Shown here one piece after another: positions 3,607-63,319 of a stretch of 64,000 bases of DNA. Under the pieces are notes generated by a model. The model saw only the letters and a list, made by a program, of their open reading frames with translations, was not told the origin of the DNA and searched no databases. The first letter of the stretch is position 1. Every line of letters begins with the position of its first letter. The position numbers and the translations under genes were made by a program. Source of the stretch: Escherichia phage BEU50; the sequence record OM632671.1. One strand, written 5' to 3'.

Positions 3607-4932
3607 ATGCAATTGAATTCTCGTAATCTAAAAAGTATTATTGATAACGAAGCCTTAGCATATGCGATGTACACCGTTGAAAACCGTGCAATCCCAAACA
3701 TGATTGATGGATTTAAACCGGTTCAACGTTTTGTGGTTCATCGTGCATTAGATTTGGCTCGTGGTAATAAAGAAAAATTTCATAAACTTGCGTCAATTGC
3801 AGGCGGTGTTGCAGATTTAGGTTATCACCACGGTGAATCTTCTGCACAAGATGCAGGTGCATTAATGGCTAACACATGGAACAACAACTATCCACTGTTA
3901 GATGGCCAGGGCAACTTTGGTTCTAGAACAGTCCAAAAAGCTGCAGCATCTCGTTATATTTTTGCTCGTGTAAGTAAAAATTTCTATAACGTATATAAAG
4001 ATACTGAATATGCTCCAGCTCATGAAGATAAAGAACACATTCCACCAAAATTCTATCTTCCTATTATTCCGACAGTTCTTTTGAATGGCGTCTCTGGTAT
4101 TGCAACCGGTTACGCAACAAATATTCTGCCTCATAGTTTTAAATCAGTCAAAAAGGCTGTATTACAAGCTCTTCAAGGTAAAAATGTCACTAAGCCAAAA
4201 GTTGAATTCCCGGAATTCCGTGGTGAAGTACATGAAGTTGATGGGCGTTATGAGATTCACGGAACATATAAGTTCACATCTCGCACTCAAATGCAGATAA
4301 CTGAAATCCCATATAAATTCGACCGTGAAACGTATGTGAGTAAGGTTCTTGACCCGTTGGAAGACAAAGGTCTAATCTCATGGGAAGATGATTGCGGTGA
4401 ACACGGCTTTGGGTTTAAGGTGAAGTTCCGTAAAGAGTACTCGCTTTCTGATGATGAAGAGCTACGTCATGAAAAAATCATGAAAGATTTTAGTCTCATC
4501 GAACGTCGTTCACAAAACATCACAGTGATTAATGAAAAGGGTAAATTAGCGGTCTACGATAATGTAGTGGACTTAATCAAAGATTTTGTTGAAGTCCGTA
4601 AGACTTACGTTCAGAAACGTATTGACAACAAAATCCTTGAATCTGAAAAAGCATTTAAACTGGCTTTTGCTAAGGCACACTTCATCAAAAAAGTTATCAG
4701 TGGCGAAATTGTGATTCAGGGCAAGACTCGTAAAGCTTTGACTGAAGAGCTAGCACAAATCGAAATGTATAAAGAACATGTCGATAAACTGGTAGGTCTT
4801 AACATCTTCCATATCACTTCCGATGAAGCACGTAAACTAGCAGAAGAAGCTAAAGCTAAGAAAGAAGAAAATGAGTATTGGAAGTCTACTGATGTTGTGA
4901 CAGAGTACACTAAAGACTTGGAGGCACTTTGA
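3607..4932 (+). CDS. 52: DNA topoisomerase II medium subunit gp52
   Basis: 441 aa, GyrA-like N-terminal sequence; T4 gp52 size and synteny. Confidence 0.9.
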   Translation: MQLNSRNLKSIIDNEALAYAMYTVENRAIPNMIDGFKPVQRFVVHRALDLARGNKEKFHKLASIAGGVADLGYHHGESSAQDAGALMANTWNNNYPLLDGQGNFGSRTVQKAAASRYIFARVSKNFYNVYKDTEYAPAHEDKEHIPPKFYLPIIPTVLLNGVSGIATGYATNILPHSFKSVKKAVLQALQGKNVTKPKVEFPEFRGEVHEVDGRYEIHGTYKFTSRTQMQITEIPYKFDRETYVSKVLDPLEDKGLISWEDDCGEHGFGFKVKFRKEYSLSDDEELRHEKIMKDFSLIERRSQNITVINEKGKLAVYDNVVDLIKDFVEVRKTYVQKRIDNKILESEKAFKLAFAKAHFIKKVISGEIVIQGKTRKALTEELAQIEMYKEHVDKLVGLNIFHITSDEARKLAEEAKAKKEENEYWKSTDVVTEYTKDLEAL

Positions 4933-5008
4933 GTGCCCTAGCCTTAGGATTTCTCGGTGCAATAGCTGCACTAGTGATTTGGCTGTATTGGTTGGACAAA
5001 CATGATTA

Positions 5009-5030
5009 GGGAGCTTCGGCTCCCTTTTGT
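5009..5030 (+). terminator. Intrinsic terminator (GGGAGC-TTCG-GCTCCC plus T-run)
   Basis: Perfect stem with UUCG loop followed by TTTT downstream of gene 52. Confidence 0.6.
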
Positions 5031-5048
5031 GCATTTTTCTCACAAAAC

Positions 5049-5126
5049 AGTTTACATGTGCTTCAAACATGATATTATAGACCTATCAAAACAAAACAAC
5101 CAAATTGGAGAAATAAAATGTCTAAA
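5049..5126 (+). repeat. Promoter/leader cassette, copy 1 (early promoter, leader, first codons ATGTCTAAA)
   Basis: About 90% identical to 5371-5446; GTTTAC 5050-5055, TGATATTAT extended -10, shared RBS GGAGAAATAAAATG. Confidence 0.7.
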
Positions 5127-5333
5127 ATGAAATTAACCCAAAACACAACTACTCGTTTCGGTAAAGTTAAACCTGGTATGAATGCTCCCCGTAAAGCACT
5201 TGTTGAAGAATTAAATTTCTTAGAAGTTGAAATCAATTCTTTAGTGGTTCGCGGTTCAAATGGACATCGTTTAGAAAAGCTTCGTTCTAAAAAGGCAAAA
5301 CTTATTGGCCTTATTAAAGAAATGAGTTTGTAA
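5118..5333 (+). CDS. Hypothetical small basic protein
   Basis: 71-aa ORF flanked by the duplicated promoter/leader cassette. Confidence 0.5.
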   Translation: MSKMKLTQNTTTRFGKVKPGMNAPRKALVEELNFLEVEINSLVVRGSNGHRLEKLRSKKAKLIGLIKEMSL

Positions 5334-5370
5334 ATTTTACCAGGGCTTTTGGAAAAAGAGCCCAAAATAA

Positions 5371-5446
5371 AGTTTACTTTTGCTTCAAACATGATATTAT
5401 AGACCTATCAAAACAAATACTAATTTGGAGAAATAAAATGTCTAAA
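5371..5446 (+). repeat. Promoter/leader cassette, copy 2 (upstream of motA)
   Basis: Direct repeat of 5049-5126 including the first three codons MSK. Confidence 0.7.
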
Positions 5447-6070
5447 GTTACTTACATCATCAAAGCTTCTGAAAACGCTCTGAATGAAAAAACTGCTGCA
5501 ATAATGGTTTATATCATTAAGAACAACTTCACCACTGCTGCCAATGTCCGTGAAGCTCTGGAAGCGGAATACAATGCATCGGTTGTTAACTCTAACATTG
5601 GTGTATTGATTAAGAAAGGTTTAGTCGAAAAATCCGGTGATGGACTTGTAGCAACAGGCGAAGCAATGGATATTATCCAAAAAGCTGCAGACCTATTTGC
5701 TCAAGAAAATGCTCCAGAACTTCTTCAGAAACGTAACACTAGAAAAGCACGTGGAGTTACTCCTGAAATGCATGAATTAGCAAACTTTGTTTTTGAAAAT
5801 ATTAAAGATAAAGTTGAAGTTAAAGAAATTGGTGAAAACCGTAGTAACTTGGAAGTTCGATTTGCAAAACGAGTTCTAGGTATTCGTCAGATCGAAATTC
5901 GTCGAGATGGTTCTCTTAGAATCTTTGCATACAACATGTCAGAAACTGAATCAAAGCTGTTTACTTCTCTTGAAAATGATGTTAAGATTAAGATCGGTGG
6001 TAAATATACTTACATTGACTTCCCTAATGTGTCCAAAGAAATCATTACCCTTGTAACTAACGTACTGTGA
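5438..6070 (+). CDS. motA: Middle transcription activator MotA
   Basis: 210 aa, N-terminus MSKVTYIIKAS and overall similarity to T4 MotA (211 aa). Confidence 0.85.
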   Translation: MSKVTYIIKASENALNEKTAAIMVYIIKNNFTTAANVREALEAEYNASVVNSNIGVLIKKGLVEKSGDGLVATGEAMDIIQKAADLFAQENAPELLQKRNTRKARGVTPEMHELANFVFENIKDKVEVKEIGENRSNLEVRFAKRVLGIRQIEIRRDGSLRIFAYNMSETESKLFTSLENDVKIKIGGKYTYIDFPNVSKEIITLVTNVL

Positions 6071-9455: not shown

Positions 9456-12400
9456 TTATGCTAAACGAACGATATAGTTAAAAGCAACGTTTTTAACTGT
9501 GTTTTCTGTATTTCCTGTGGCATTTACAGTTATTGTATGTCCATGGGAACCAATTGCAACAGTATGCGTATGAGCACCAATACCTACCGAATGGGTATGA
9601 GCACCGATACCCACAGTATGAGCATGGTTACCCGTAGCGCTAGTAGTTCCTGACCAACTATGGGTGTGGGCACCGTCTGAAGAAGTTTTGGCCATATTCG
9701 ACGATGCAGTAGCACCGCTCACGGATCCAGTGATTTTAGCGTTGCCGTTTGGACCCGCACTATTGTATCCATCATAGAATATGCTAGTGGGTACGACGCC
9801 TTGTATCTGGGGGCCTGAACGCGCGTGTTGGTGAGCTCCTGCGGAACTAGTATTACCACTCACTGTATGGTTATGGTTGCCAGTGGTATTACTGGTCTTA
9901 GTACCATAATCAAAGCTTGAAGTCGTTTTGCTACCATAATCAAAACTAGAAGTGGTCTTAGTACCCAAATCTGTGTTTGATGCACTTGCGCTATGGCTAT
10001 GTGACTTAACACCGTCTGCTTCTGTACTTAATACAGCACGCCCGGATGGTTTACCCTTGATAGTTTGACCACGCATATCAGGCAGAGCACCGGAAGGATA
10101 CACCACAGCTAACTTAGGATACAAGCCAGCATCAAATGTTTGACCTTCCATTATGGCATAACCTTCAGGAGGTGTATCAGTAGGCCAAGGAATCGGAGCA
10201 CCAATTGGATAACTCGACACAATATCTGTCTTAAGGTTATTTATTGTGGTATTCAAGTTAGCAAAATTACCAGAACCACCGGTGATATTACCATCAGTAC
10301 CAAAAGTGGCAGCACCGGCAATAATTTTACCAGCAGCACGGAAATCACCAGTGCGACGGAATTCCCAACTTAAATCAGTGCCACCAGTACTGGTGCCTTG
10401 GTGGTAATGAACACGGAAATCTCCTTGATTAATTAATGTCCCGATAGAATAAGTGCTATCACCTTGCACATAACGTTGTTTAACAATAGGAATATATTCA
10501 GAAGTAGCAGTACGCTCTATATTCATATAGATTGGAGCTCTGGAGTTTGCGTCATTCTGAGATGCAAATGAACCACAACCTGCTGGGCGAACTCCATCAG
10601 AAGCCTCAATATCTATATAAGCATTTTGTCCTAATTGCATACGGTAATTAGGAGAAATGCGACTATTACTAGTAACAACAACAAGTTTGTTATCATTGTC
10701 CACTGTAATCATATTACCGCCAGCTCCATCATCGCCTAACGTGACAGAATGACGCATTTGTACCATACCATTATTAAGACTAATACTTAATGGACGGAGA
10801 TTGCTTATTCCACCTGATTCTCCAGCATCTTTAGGAGTCGGGATAATATGCAATGCCGCTTCAGAACGACGGAAAATAGCGCCGTATTCAGCATTCCAAA
10901 TTCTTAATGCATCAGCTGTTCCACCGAATTTAGCTTGTCCAGTAATAGAAGAACCACCTTGAACAAACAATCCATTATTCATTGTAACGTTGCCAACTAG
11001 AGTGCTTAATCCGTTAACTCTAAGACTTCCGTCGGTTATTAAGCTTCCTCTAGCATTAACCTGTCCATTGAACTGAGTTACAACAGGCCCAGTAGTTTCA
11101 GAGCCACTTGGAGCCACACGCTGTGAATAAAAATAATATCCTTGCCCATCTGATACTTCAAAAACCGTTTCACGATTACGATCGCCAGATGCGTTAAATG
11201 AATTACCCCATGCTTTAACAGTTACATAGCTTTTATTCTGACCAGCACGAGTACCGCCTTCCCACAAAATTTGCTTAGTGCCATCAATACCTGAAGCTGC
11301 TTTAAAAACTAGAGAAGCATTAGTTCCATCACCATTAAAATATAATCCATTATTAAGTTTTAATGTTTGAACAGAAGCGATGGTACCATCAGCACGCAAA
11401 TTTAACGAATTTGAACCGGTTTTAATATCTAAAATGCCAGGCTCAACAAGAAGCCCATCACCCATACTAATGGACATACGACCCGTGCCACGGAAATAGT
11501 GATACATTTTAGAATTACTGCTATAACCGATATGAGTTTGACCATCACCATTATTATTACCATCAACATCGGTACGCGCAGTAAACATTGCTTGGTTGTT
11601 ATTTGGGTAATCCCAAGTAGTACCAGAATCGCGGCTATAACCGACCATCAATTTCTTAGTGCTGTTAATACCTTTATTCAAAATGGTAGCGGATGAAATA
11701 CCGTTAGCCATGAAATCAATAACACCGTCGCGGACCCATTTAATACCGGTGTCGTTATCACCAATTGCAATACCTATAGAAATCGCAGAATCTAAAGGAT
11801 AACGTCCATTTGTACCATTATCAGGAAGACCTACCGAAATCGATTTACCTGCAGTAATACGACCGGAGGTATCAAACGCCCATTGGAAAGATTCCGGGCC
11901 TACACCTGTCCACCAAGAAATTTCTTGTGGCTTACCTTTTCGGCAATCGGCAATTTCATGGAAAATACTTGATGCACTTGATGCACGCAATTTACGCAAA
12001 TAGTTTAAACCGTTAGTAGTATTATCAGAACCATCAGCCGGTGGGTTATAAACCCAAGTAGGTAAAGAAACCCAATCATATCCAATGTTAGCATTAGCTA
12101 CAAATCTTTTTGTACTAAAATTAATATTTTTAGTAACAATTTCAGGACCGGTGATAATACCATTAGCAGAGTTTATATTGCCTGAAGCAGAAATATTACC
12201 GGTACGAACTTCAATACTACCGGAATCTACGATGAAATTACCATTTCGATTAAAAGTCCAATATTTTGAAGTCCCGGTTTCATCAATATAATGGAATTTA
12301 AAACTACCTTCGTTTACTAATGTACCGGCAGAAAAAGTACCGTCTTTATAACGTTGCTTAATCAGAGGATGATATTCTGATACTGAGGTAGTTGAACTCA

Positions 12401-14612: not shown

Positions 14613-17600
14613 TTATTCAATCCACTCGAATTTAACAGATTTATTCACAGGGTCTGGAATAATGCGGACATTACCAATCCTTAAGAAATCCCTTATTGTC
14701 AAGTTTCCGACTGTTGCATTATCAGAAGGTAAAGCACCAATATCAGAAGGTTGAGGAGGGTTTCCACCATCAAATACCTGAACAAAACTCGACCAAGAAT
14801 TTTTGGTTTTCTGCCATGTACGTGTCCAACGGGTTGTACGTGCTTCTGGAGTTGTTGGATAAGTAATCCAATCTTGGTAAAGTGAATCAAGTGTATTACC
14901 AAACTGAGTCAATGTACCAGGAGATTTAACTTCTTCGCCACGTTCTAAGTATGGAAGCCCAGTCACTTCATTAGTTTTTTCAACCATTTTAAAATAACCT
15001 GGGAACTGGTTATAAGTGGCTGAATCGTTAATATCGATTGACCAGAATCCTACTGTATCAGATGTTGGTGCGCGGGTGTATAAATCAGATGTTTTATTGC
15101 CCTGAGAACGAATTCTCGAGTTAACAGTCAAACCACCTGAATTTATAGTAGCACCTTTGGCAATGATTAAGCTTTCACCAATTGTGACTTGACCGGATGC
15201 ATTATTAATAGCTAAAGGACGTAATCCATTAAATCCACCAGTTTGGTCACCAGAAGCAGTTAACATGAAATAGGTGCTGCCCCCATCATTGCGAATAAAG
15301 AATCCGTAATCACCACTAATTGCTCTGAAAGCATTTGCAGACTTGCTAATGAATTCACCATTGGCTGTAACTGAACGACCAAATGTTGCAACGCCATTAA
15401 CATTCATCAAACCGGAAGCATTAATGTTTATTGGCATCACAGTACCATTAATGCTAAACGCTATATTCCCAGCTTTATTACGTTGAGAATAAAAGTGATT
15501 AGATGTTTCATCACCAACTTCAAATACAGTAGAACGTGTTGTATCTGAACCACCACCAAATTCATTTCCCCAAACTCTGATAGTCATCGTCTGTGCTGGG
15601 TTAGTTCCAGTTTGAGGTCCTTTCTCAAAAATCAGACGAGTTGCCGTTCCAGTATTAGAAATAGTTAATGTACTATTTGCCGAAACTGAACCACCAAACG
15701 TAGCAGTACTAGATGATACAAGAGGGGCACTCAGATTCGTTTGTTGGGTTAAGGTTAGTGAACCATTAACCGTCTGTGCAATATCCCTACGAATGAACTG
15801 AGATGAATCTAGGCCATCTAATAAATTTGCGTCAGCAGCTTTAGCTTTCAATGGCAAATAGTTAGCAAGTACACGGTTTAATTCATATGGAGATATAGCA
15901 TAGCTATTTTTCTCATATGATTCTAAAGGTTGTGTTGAACCAACTGTATCATTACCAACAAATGTAATAGAACCGGATGAAGTTTTAACGAATCCGCGAA
16001 TTGCTGTAGTAGCAGCCCATGTTGGTTCGTTCTGGACAATCCATTTTAAATTCTTAGGAGATACAGCAGTATTAGCAGAAGTTCCTGTTACAGTTTCAGC
16101 CTGAGTAGCAACCTTAATTACGCCTTCAGACGTTTCAGTGGACTTAGTCCCTAAAAGCTTTTTAGGAGTAATAAGAACATCATCTAAAGTTCCTGCATTA
16201 GATTCTGCCTGAGTCGCTACGCGAAGTGTACCACGTTGTGTTTCATTTGCTTTAGAAATATCAAGAGTATAATGGTTCCACAAGGTTCCTTCTTCAATAA
16301 GTCCGGAATCAGAATTAACACTGGTACGGTCAGAAGAATCAAAATGAGTTTTAATTTTCAGTGGAGTCGAGATACGAGTATCATCAGTTCCAGTATCAAA
16401 TTCAACTTGCGTAGCAAGTTCGGCTATGCCGGATAATCCTTCCGTAGCTTTCCTATCATTTAACGTCTTAGGCGTTACTGCACGTGTATAATCAGTCCCA
16501 GCATTAGTTTCTGCTTGCGTAGCAATTTCAATTAAACCAATACGTCCATCAGTAGAAGTTTTCTTATGTAGTGTTTCAGGAGTTACTACAGCGTGAGAAT
16601 AACCTGCTTGAGATTGTCCAGCAATTACTTCACTATCAACAGCTAAAATTACTGCACCTTGTTGAGCATAAGTTGCTTTATATTGGTCAAGGGCTTTAGG
16701 AGAAATAGTTAAATTATTTACGGTTTTATTATAAACGTTAGTGCCTGCGGCCCCACGAGTTTCAGCAGGAGTAGCAGAAGTAGTTGATACATATTTAACT
16801 ATACCAGATAGTGTTTCAGAACCCTGACGTGCCTGCAATTTCTTAGGTGTAATAATCGTTGTGTCATCAAGACCAGCATCGGTTTCAGTCTGAGTAGCAA
16901 TTTCAGCAAGACCGCGACGAGTTTCAGTTGCTGTACGCTCATTTAGTTTTTTAGGCGTAACAATAGTATCGTCCACAAATGATGATGTGGAATTCTGGTT
17001 AACTTGTGCTGTTGTAGCAATTTTAGCGATACCACGTCGAGCTTCAGTTGCTGTACGATTTGCCAACGTTTCAGGAGTAATAGCCACTTCTTTAGCTGGA
17101 GTATTCTCTAAATCAACATTTGCCTGTGCCTGAGTTGCAAGAGCAATAACACCTAAACGAGCTCGTGTAGCATCAGTTCCAGCATCAACACGTTCTACTG
17201 TAGGGACGTTTTGTTGAACAACCCAGTAACTTGTACCAGCAACGGTGTCTTCGATATACGCTAATTCTAATACAGGAACATATGAAGTAGTGCCATTGAA
17301 TTCTAGTTCAGTAACAGAGACCCATTGAGCATCGGGTGGATATTCAGAACGTTTAGGGAACTGAAGTAATGCAACAGAAGAAGCAATTGTATCACCTTCG
17401 GCAGCTTTAATTTTTACTGTTTGGCCTTTACGCATGTAGTTCATTGAAATTTTAACAGTATCACCGGTCAAAATTCCTGTAGGAAGCGTAAGGTTAATAG
17501 TTTCTGCTGTAGCGTTATTTGTACCAAAAATAAGAACTTCTTCATTTGGGCGAATATTTGAATCTGTACGGATAATACGAAGACGTGATTTCTGGTCGCC

Positions 17601-62715: not shown

Positions 62716-62744
62716 AGCCCCTTCCGAAAGGTTGGGGCTTTTTG
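62716..62744 (+). terminator. Intrinsic terminator (AGCCCC-UU-CC-GAAA-GG-UU-GGGGCU plus T-run)
   Basis: Hairpin with GNRA loop followed by TTTTT; near-identical copy at 63259-63287. Confidence 0.55.
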
Positions 62745-62788
62745 GCATAATAATAAATAGATAAGTTAATTAACTTAGGAAAAGCAAC

Positions 62789-63258: not shown

Positions 63259-63287
63259 TGCCCCTTCCTTATGGTTGGGGCTTTTTG
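63259..63287 (+). terminator. Intrinsic terminator (second copy of the GCCCCTTCC...GGTTGGGGC hairpin plus T-run)
   Basis: GCCCCTTCCTTATGGTTGGGGCTTTTT; direct repeat of 62716-62744. Confidence 0.55.
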
Positions 63288-63319
63288 GCATCTAGGGCAT
63301 AAAAATATTTCATAAAGAT

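Follow-up and report, generated by a model that had tools for sequence, protein, structure and literature searches.

Results

Organization of the gene 52-motA interval

The window analysed here, by which we mean the whole 64,000-nucleotide stretch from Escherichia phage BEU50 (OM632671.1), is Mosigvirus DNA of the HX01/JS09-like type (Straboviridae, Tevenvirinae), and in a megablast search with positions 4700-5800 as the query, HX01, JS09, ST0 and others matched it at 98-99% identity. Between positions 4500 and 6300, the plus strand carries, in order, the end of gene 52, a micro-ORF, a stem-loop, a first copy of a direct repeat, a small open reading frame (hereafter ORF-A), a second stem-loop, the second copy of the repeat, and motA (Table 1). 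Gene identities were checked with PHROGs and Pfam. The first-pass annotation of this DNA had placed the starts of ORF-A and motA where they are listed here and had named the latter gene; both starts were upheld, and the motA product contains the Pfam domains MotA_activ (2.4e-39; 133.8 bits against a cut-off of 26.1) and MotCF (2.1e-08; 34.6 bits against a cut-off of 25).

Table 1. Features of the gene 52-motA interval, in window coordinates.
Feature	Position	Strand	Evidence
Gene 52, topoisomerase II medium subunit; left conserved flank	3607..4932	+	PHROG 551 (2.3e-217); Pfam DNA_topoisoIV (4.7e-78)
Hydrophobic 26-aa micro-ORF, positional equivalent of T4 motA.1	4929..5009	+	Sequence; HX01 annotation at the same place
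Stem-loop GGGAGCUUCGGCUCCC with U-rich tract; intrinsic-terminator-like, ends the gene 52 unit	5008..5036	+	RNA fold
Repeat copy 1, upstream of ORF-A	5041..5126	+	Repeat search, promoter scoring, base-by-base comparison
Parts of copy 1: A-rich region; GTTTAC; TG+TATTAT; leader 1; GGAG; ATG TCT AAA	GTTTAC 5050-5055; TATTAT 5073-5078; GGAG 5107-5110; ATG TCT AAA 5118-5126	+	
ORF-A, basic 71-aa protein (MSKMKL...)	5118..5333	+	PHROG 6200 (1.6e-39)
Stem-loop GGGCUUUU-GGAAA-AAGAGCCC, directly 3' of ORF-A and touching the A-rich region of copy 2	5343..5363	+	RNA fold
Repeat copy 2, upstream of motA	5363..5446	+	Repeat search, promoter scoring, base-by-base comparison
Parts of copy 2: A-rich region; GTTTAC; TG+TATTAT; leader 2; GGAG; ATG TCT AAA	GTTTAC 5372-5377; TATTAT 5395-5400; GGAG 5427-5430; ATG TCT AAA 5438-5446	+	
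motA, activator of middle transcription (MSKVTY...); right conserved flank	5438..6070	+	PHROG 1345 (4.1e-90)

The micro-ORF begins with a TTG codon that overlaps the gene 52 stop codon (TTGA) and is preceded immediately by GGAGG; its counterpart in JS98 and ESCO47 starts with ATG. HX01 carries an annotation for it, most relatives do not, and motA.1 of T4 (49 aa, annotated as "predicted periplasmic") overlaps the stop codon of gene 52 in the same way. The stem that follows (5008-5025; -14 kcal/mol, z -3.7) leads into a U tract and lies 25 nt upstream of copy 1; the element is annotated as a terminator in PhAPEC2 and has equivalents in T4 and G4498. The stem-loop behind ORF-A (-12.2 kcal/mol, z -2.9) is preserved in JS98 and IME281 with a compensatory change from A-U to G-C as well as a change from C-G to U-G. 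Because it is not followed by a U tract, however, it may not terminate transcription.

Two copies of an early promoter unit

T-even early promoters share an extended consensus comprising GTTTAC, a TG dinucleotide, a -10 element resembling TATAAT, and an A-rich upstream region. Each copy of the repeat, roughly 85 nt long, contains such a promoter followed by a leader, a GGAG ribosome-binding site and the codons ATG TCT AAA. The direct repeats align as 5041-5095 with 5363-5417 (55 nt, 91% identity) and as 5090-5126 with 5410-5446 (37 nt, 84%), the two segments being offset by a 2-nt indel; within the 77 nt that begin with GTTTAC and end with ATGTCTAAA, five substitutions and this one indel separate the copies, or about 91% identity. 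The first-pass annotation had reported repeats of about 90% identity at 5049-5126 and 5371-5446, which the alignment bears out, except that the repeat begins some 9 nt further 5', within the A-rich region.

By consensus matching, copy 1 reads TTTACA/16/TATTAT and copy 2 TTTACT/16/TATTAT, both being of the sigma-70 type with a TG before the -10 element (extended -10). The A-rich stretch directly 5' of GTTTAC is CACAAAACA in copy 1 and CAAAATAAA in copy 2, and the 3' end of the unit, consisting of the Shine-Dalgarno sequence and the start codon, is GGAGAAATAAAATG in both. The upstream parts have different affinities: that of copy 1 (CACAAAACAGTTTAC) matches the resident motA promoter of T4 (CACAAAACGGTTTAC), whereas that of copy 2 (GCCCAAAATAAAGTTTAC) matches copy 2 of JS98 and IME281. 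A 34-nt core, GTTTACNNNTGCTTCAAACATGATATTATAGACC, was found at exactly two sites in the 64-kb window at up to three mismatches and at none in 100 shuffles, and it is therefore not a generic early-promoter consensus. The other GTTTAC promoters in the window, as well as the T4 motA promoter, share only about 30% ungapped identity with the repeat.

The ribosome-binding region of both copies, GGAGAAAUAAA, fits the RegB consensus at 9 of 11 positions and equals the T4 consensus GGAGAAUAAAA with one additional A. The RegB/S1 site is a single-stranded 11-nt sequence, GGAGRAYARAA, at the ribosome-binding site of early mRNAs (Durand et al. 2006, PMC1702504); T4 motA is a good RegB substrate, and RB69 transcripts are among those cleaved (PMC1702504). 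From their composition, the repeats would appear to be functional promoter units with stem-loops rather than an inert footprint.

ORF-A encodes a small, basic ORFan

Comparison of ORF-A with its orthologue from JS98 yields a dN/dS of 0.19, with 15, 14 and 33 differences at the first, second and third codon positions, a pattern that argues for a real gene. Its product is basic, as the first-pass annotation had stated (pI 10.6; 15 Lys and Arg against 6 Asp and Glu). No significant match was obtained in Pfam, and the only match in PHROGs was to PHROG 6200, a family of unknown function. A word-indexed search of 5.8e9 proteins returned eight clusters, whose members are all Mosigvirus or Dhakavirus phages, and a profile HMM run against 1.84e9 representatives recovered the family itself together with coiled-coil noise in long proteins. 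A tblastn search located ORF-A in 93 phage records, of which 75 show at least 90% identity, one shows 87%, and 17 show 72-78%. Those of lower identity that were opened or carry a genus name (JS98 and Dhakavirus CLBP2) belong to Dhakavirus. By these searches, ORF-A appears to be an ORFan confined to Mosigvirus and Dhakavirus.

The AlphaFold2 model (pLDDT 76) has a basic, disordered segment at residues 1-22, followed by a helical hairpin formed by residues 23-44 and 50-70. Apart from the orthologue from Bp7, Foldseek searches of the PDB and BFVD with this model matched only helical hairpins of a designed or generic kind. The possibility that ORF-A is the remnant of a duplicated motA N-terminus was considered and rejected: the similarity ends at the three shared codons, and ORF-A of JS98 has a start of its own.

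Damaged copies were also encountered. In a metagenomic phage contig from Logan (SRR8893626), codon 8 is changed from CAA to the nonsense codon TAA (contig positions 1142-1165), and a small deletion lies just 3' of the copy-1 -10 box (contig 1100-1110); in ECCR664, the C-terminus of ORF-A is frameshifted (locus positions 901-1107). Such copies may show that a dispensable gene is decaying, or they may stem from errors in sequencing. ORF-A has the appearance of a dispensable early protein, with which the damaged copies would fit. As to its role, we can only guess, by analogy with many T-even early ORFans, at a small accessory factor that binds a host component or nucleic acid.

Filled and empty sites coexist within Mosigvirus

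Searching with positions 4700-5800 retrieved 155 records at 95% identity or above. Of these, 75 match end to end and are referred to here as filled, while the remaining 80 or so are covered to 77-78%, in two pieces that together span about 780 bp, that is, 1101 minus 322. The empty sites, found in approximately half of the Mosigvirus genomes, therefore lack exactly one repeat unit together with ORF-A, as 322 bp is one repeat period. The first-pass annotation had looked to the relatives for presence or absence of ORF-A with breakpoints in the repeat, and this is the pattern that the close genomes display.

Ten filled loci, including the window, and 13 empty ones were read base by base. All 13 empty loci possess a single hybrid repeat, with the gene 52 terminator on its left and motA on its right, and there are two junction classes. 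In RB69 and PTK, the upstream region and spacer of copy 1 are joined to the leader of copy 2 (AAATACTAATTTGG), which places the crossover in the 37-nt identical core. In AV116, mar005P1, p000v, p000y, ECO111, PTE-Eco05, O157tp3, phiC120 and a20, the leader of copy 1 is retained, and the crossover must consequently lie in the 23-nt block around the ribosome-binding site and start codon. The empty sites of ESCO47 and JM10 have leaders that derive mainly from copy 1 but are patchy.

Exchange between the copies has also left conversion patches in filled loci: UGJNEcP1 carries the copy-1 leader in copy 2, and both APCEc01 and UGJNEcP1 carry the copy-2 spacer TTTTG in copy 1. The filled phage APCEc01 and the empty phage mar005P1 belong to the same ICTV species and have a rare copy-1 haplotype in common.

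Neighbour-joining trees were built for the left and for the right flank, and in both of them filled genomes are scattered among empty ones. Such a pattern can arise if the events recurred or if alleles were reassorted on a fine scale by crossovers in the flanking homology; since flank crossovers could reassort the alleles in this way, interspersion alone does not prove that many independent deletions took place. Only the two junction classes strictly require at least two independent crossovers. Moreover, most of the empty-site crossovers map to the shorter identical block and not to the longer core, which fits better with few events followed by reassortment than with frequent random crossovers.

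The cassette in Dhakavirus and its age

Dhakavirus JS98 carries ORF-A at the same place, between 49-nt repeats that are 94% identical; the case in which a relative would hold the same ORF without flanking repeats does not arise in JS98. However, the JS98 repeats extend only over the A-rich region, the promoter and CCTATCAAA, and the leaders, ribosome-binding sites and start codons differ. ORF-A of JS98 begins with MNKMKN and has its own leader, and in JS98 as in IME281 it is the promoter alone that is repeated.

Between the window and JS98, nucleotide identity amounts to 70.9% for ORF-A, 70.5% for gene 52 and 72.4% for motA. Because its divergence between the genera equals that of its neighbours, ORF-A appears to be a long-standing resident, and it has probably occupied the 52-motA site since before Mosigvirus and Dhakavirus separated. 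The empty Mosigvirus sites would then be deletions, and the variation within the genus is probably most simply explained by repeated loss rather than by recent insertion. The first-pass annotation had proposed that the cassette was inserted by recombination: its view of the repeats as the substrates of gene gain and loss stands, but a recent insertion is the less likely history and loss the likelier direction, given that ORF-A has diverged as far as its flanks.

The promoter core is 88-93% identical between the genera and 95-98% identical between the two copies of one genome, which indicates concerted evolution of the copies, although this signal rests on few nucleotide positions. MotA begins with MSK universally (in T4, JS98 and Merlin), whereas ORF-A of JS98 begins with MNK. 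For this reason, the identity that Mosigvirus shows over the ribosome-binding site and ATG TCT AAA is best read as a later conversion of the ORF-A translation start by that of motA. The suggestion that the duplicated motA start is the footprint of the insertion was accordingly abandoned, for in JS98 and IME281 the repeat comprises only the promoter; the shared segment in the window is then unlikely to be the original insertion junction.

Replacement by an unrelated cassette and transfer between genera

In Dhakavirus IME281, the position of ORF-A is taken by a 75-aa frame, ORF-B; the repeats on either side of it (56 nt) and the stem-loop behind it are the same. A relationship between ORF-A and ORF-B was considered and discarded, as BLASTP produces no alignment between them. 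Matches to ORF-B were obtained in 168 phage records, and 138 of these reach at least 95% identity. In T4 and RB69 the slot is empty.

The Tequatrovirus G4498 is T4-like through gene 52, motA.1, the terminator and the first promoter, and T4-like again beyond the motA ribosome-binding site. Between these points lies a block of about 360 bp, consisting of a leader, ORF-B, the stem-loop and a Dhakavirus-type promoter, that is approximately 99% identical to IME281, whereas the flanks of the two phages are only about 70% identical. The junctions of the block fall at CTATCAA, just 3' of the -10 element, and at GGAGATT, at the motA ribosome-binding site. The two promoters of G4498 do not resemble each other (about 30% ungapped identity), and motA would now be driven by the imported one. 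Within that promoter (locus positions ~1560-1600), the left arm of the Dhakavirus post-ORF stem-loop is joined to an upstream region of the IME281 copy-1 type (GTGCAAAAAAGTGTTTAC), so that the stem is broken; a simple mini-circle formed between copy 1 and copy 2 would not yield this fusion.

Finally, the 52-motA slot of Merlin, a Citrobacter phage of the genus Moonvirus, contains three small ORFs (locus 1300-2440), one of which is a homologue of ORF-B; the slot can therefore hold arrays of several cassettes. A promoter of the CCGTTTAC type (GTTTAC) precedes ORFs 1 and 2 and motA, while the third ORF, located after the second, has a ribosome-binding site only. Judged from these loci, the spacer between gene 52 and motA appears to be a small exchange hotspot across the subfamily.

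Discussion

A probable one-gene cassette between two promoter units

The explanation that we favour, with a probability of about 0.8, is that the interval holds a one-gene early cassette between two promoter units, that recombination between these units deletes, keeps or swaps the gene, and that ORF-A was ancestral to both genera and was then lost in about half of the sequenced Mosigviruses. Each unit opens with a stem-loop and an A-rich upstream region and continues through a T4-type early promoter and a leader to a ribosome-binding site. Host RNA polymerase would start at both copies soon after infection, transcribing ORF-A from copy 1 and motA from copy 2. The length (~85 nt) and similarity (~91%) of the copies would allow the phage's very active homologous recombination to cross over between them, and an intramolecular or unequal crossover would remove one repeat unit with ORF-A, or 322 bp. 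Such a loss should be harmless, because the one hybrid promoter that remains keeps its proper connection to motA. A cassette could be inserted or replaced by the same reaction in reverse or by two crossovers within the promoter units.

Gene conversion would meanwhile keep the two copies alike. In Mosigvirus, to judge from the comparison with JS98, conversion may have spread from the promoter through the leader and ribosome-binding site into the first three codons, with the consequence that ORF-A would use the translation start of motA, including the GGAG and A-rich sequence that resembles a RegB site. Alignment of the loci documents that exactly one repeat unit was lost, that hybrid junctions occur at two positions, that tracts were converted between the copies, that an unrelated cassette has taken the slot, and that a cassette has moved between genera together with its promoter; the model further predicts that the promoters fire, that the stem-loops attenuate transcription, that circular intermediates form and that RegB cleaves the transcripts.

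Relationship to PeSL-mediated shuffling and to other cassette systems

The concept has already been described as PeSL-mediated shuffling (PMC2839356, PMC4122927), of which the Mosigvirus locus is a new example. In that model, ORFans are bordered by composite promoter/stem-loop units about 100 bp in length, and homologous recombination excises, inserts or replaces the ORF while always leaving a working promoter for the gene downstream (Arbiol et al. 2010, PMC2839356). It was for RB49/phi1 that this mechanism was put forward and mini-circles were demonstrated (PMC2839356); Comeau et al. (2014, PMC4122927) later applied the model to T4/PST and KVP40/nt-1 as well.

In its structure and in the comparison with relatives, the Mosigvirus element appears to qualify as a PeSL cassette. 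As in RB49/phi1, a stem-loop, an A-rich region, an early promoter, a Shine-Dalgarno sequence and a start codon are assembled into a composite unit of about 100 bp; a small ORFan lies between two tandem units, and the ORF is missing from a close relative, whose site retains one chimeric unit; and unrelated ORFs are swapped at one slot, with the cassette bringing its own promoter. There are, however, several differences. RB49/phi1 possess about 50 similar motifs genome-wide, mostly in hyperplastic regions and with promoters of sigma-70 consensus, whereas in Mosigvirus there is a locus-specific pair, with two copies in one 64-kb window. The stems of RB49/phi1 are G/C-rich, while those of Mosigvirus are not polyG/polyC. 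The Mosigvirus pair further departs from RB49/phi1 in its T4-type GTTTAC promoter, in the conserved genes 52 and motA on either side, and in an identity that reaches three codons into the coding sequence; and whereas mini-circles were seen with RB49/phi1, the Mosigvirus locus is known from sequence comparison.

Promoter elements of T-even phages, such as those of the internal-protein (IP) loci, have been called analogues, not homologues, of the RB49 PeSLs (Arbiol et al., PMC2839356). According to the summary of Repoila et al. (1994) given in PMC2839356, T4-type early promoters and weaker, AT-richer stem-loops there flank highly variable small genes that are shuffled between phages; the locus and the genes, as that summary presents them, are other than those of the 52-motA interval. 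A likeness to integron cassettes is also apparent, in that these are small, single-gene and promoter-context-dependent, are exchanged at one slot, and have been proposed to pass through a circular intermediate. Yet the 52-motA interval has no integrase, attC or attI, exchange being attributable to general homologous recombination at promoter repeats, and its cassette supplies a promoter for the downstream gene, whereas integron cassettes rely on one upstream promoter.

A literature search of limited reach found no paper describing the Mosigvirus 52-motA cassette. Its distinctive features are the location between conserved genes, the identity extending three codons into both genes, the roughly 50:50 polymorphism within one genus, and the exchange of the motA promoter in a Tequatrovirus.

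Alternative explanations

The same data can be read in the opposite direction. The empty state would be ancestral in Mosigvirus, and ORF-A would have arrived as a cassette, for example as a mini-circle carrying a promoter or as a fragment from a co-infecting phage, in the leader and start of motA, thereby creating the duplication. The recombination is formally reversible (PMC2839356); the sites of T4 and of ESCO47, the most divergent Mosigvirus, are empty; copy 1 resembles the resident T4 motA promoter in its upstream part and copy 2 the cassette-side promoter of JS98 and IME281; and in G4498 an actual insertion of the ORF-B cassette from another genus can be seen. We nevertheless regard this history as unlikely. 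The divergence of ORF-A between the genera, equal to that of the flanks, speaks for long co-residence rather than recent import, and the hybrid of RB69 and PTK has exactly the form of a deletion product and cannot represent the pre-insertion state if the AV116-type site does. An insertion deep in the common ancestor, on the other hand, is compatible with the favoured explanation of an ancestral cassette that was later lost.

More speculative still, and in our estimation improbable, is the idea that the 52-motA spacer serves the Tevenvirinae as an integron-like slot between genera, in which the incoming promoter takes over motA, and that ORF-A of Mosigvirus came under the translation start and RegB site of motA because it acts with MotA/AsiA in the timing of the early-to-middle transition. 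Were it true, cassette turnover would directly retune the master regulator motA, which goes beyond the shuffling of accessory genes.

Two further readings have very little to commend them. T-even genomes carry many homing endonuclease genes, and the insert is discrete and precisely present or absent, as would suit a site-specific mobile element of the homing-endonuclease or transposon-like kind with the repeat as its target-site duplication; but neither ORF-A nor its neighbours contain an endonuclease, integrase or transposase domain, the cassette amounts to one 71-aa helical protein, a repeat of ~85 nt is far longer than a target-site duplication, and the crossover points vary among the empty alleles as expected of homologous and not of site-specific exchange. 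That two independent early promoters merely converged on a strong T4-type consensus, with no part in gene gain or loss, is equally hard to credit even though both copies fit the T-even early consensus, as the identity runs on through the spacer, the post -10 region, the leader, the ribosome-binding site and three codons, outside any promoter consensus, the core is restricted to its two sites while other GTTTAC promoters differ, and the indel breakpoints lie inside the repeat, so that the empty-site junctions already refute it; the concern that the repeat might be a generic motA promoter can be laid to rest on the same grounds.

Other repeats in the window

A second direct-repeat pair of early promoters is located at 1952-2025 and 2464-2537 on the plus strand (74 nt, 77% identity), upstream of ndd, and brackets an 87-aa ORF (2025-2288). 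Its sequence is unlike that of the motA pair. In the hairpin that each copy contains, TAGGACTA (TAGGATTA in the second copy) pairs with TAGTCCTA, and the 3' arm overlaps the -10 element. This pair may represent another cassette of the 52-motA kind. A terminator-like hairpin, GCCCC...GGGGCTTTTTGGCAT, is repeated with 91% identity at 62717-62748 and 63260-63291, 543 bp apart, and could bracket a further small cassette. A 30-bp tandem repeat in three copies (9893-9993) and diverged repeats of 44-48 nt spaced at multiples of ~100-375 bp (16068-17210) are probably internal to structural, fibre-like genes.

Implications

The 52-motA interval provides an unusually clean, population-scale example of gene shuffling by promoter repeats in T-even phages, in which one slot exists in three allelic states: empty, occupied by ORF-A, or occupied by the unrelated ORF-B. 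For annotation and phage engineering, ORF-A can be flagged as dispensable and the repeat as a likely point of instability. More generally, the locus illustrates how small early ORFans come and go without disturbing an essential neighbour.
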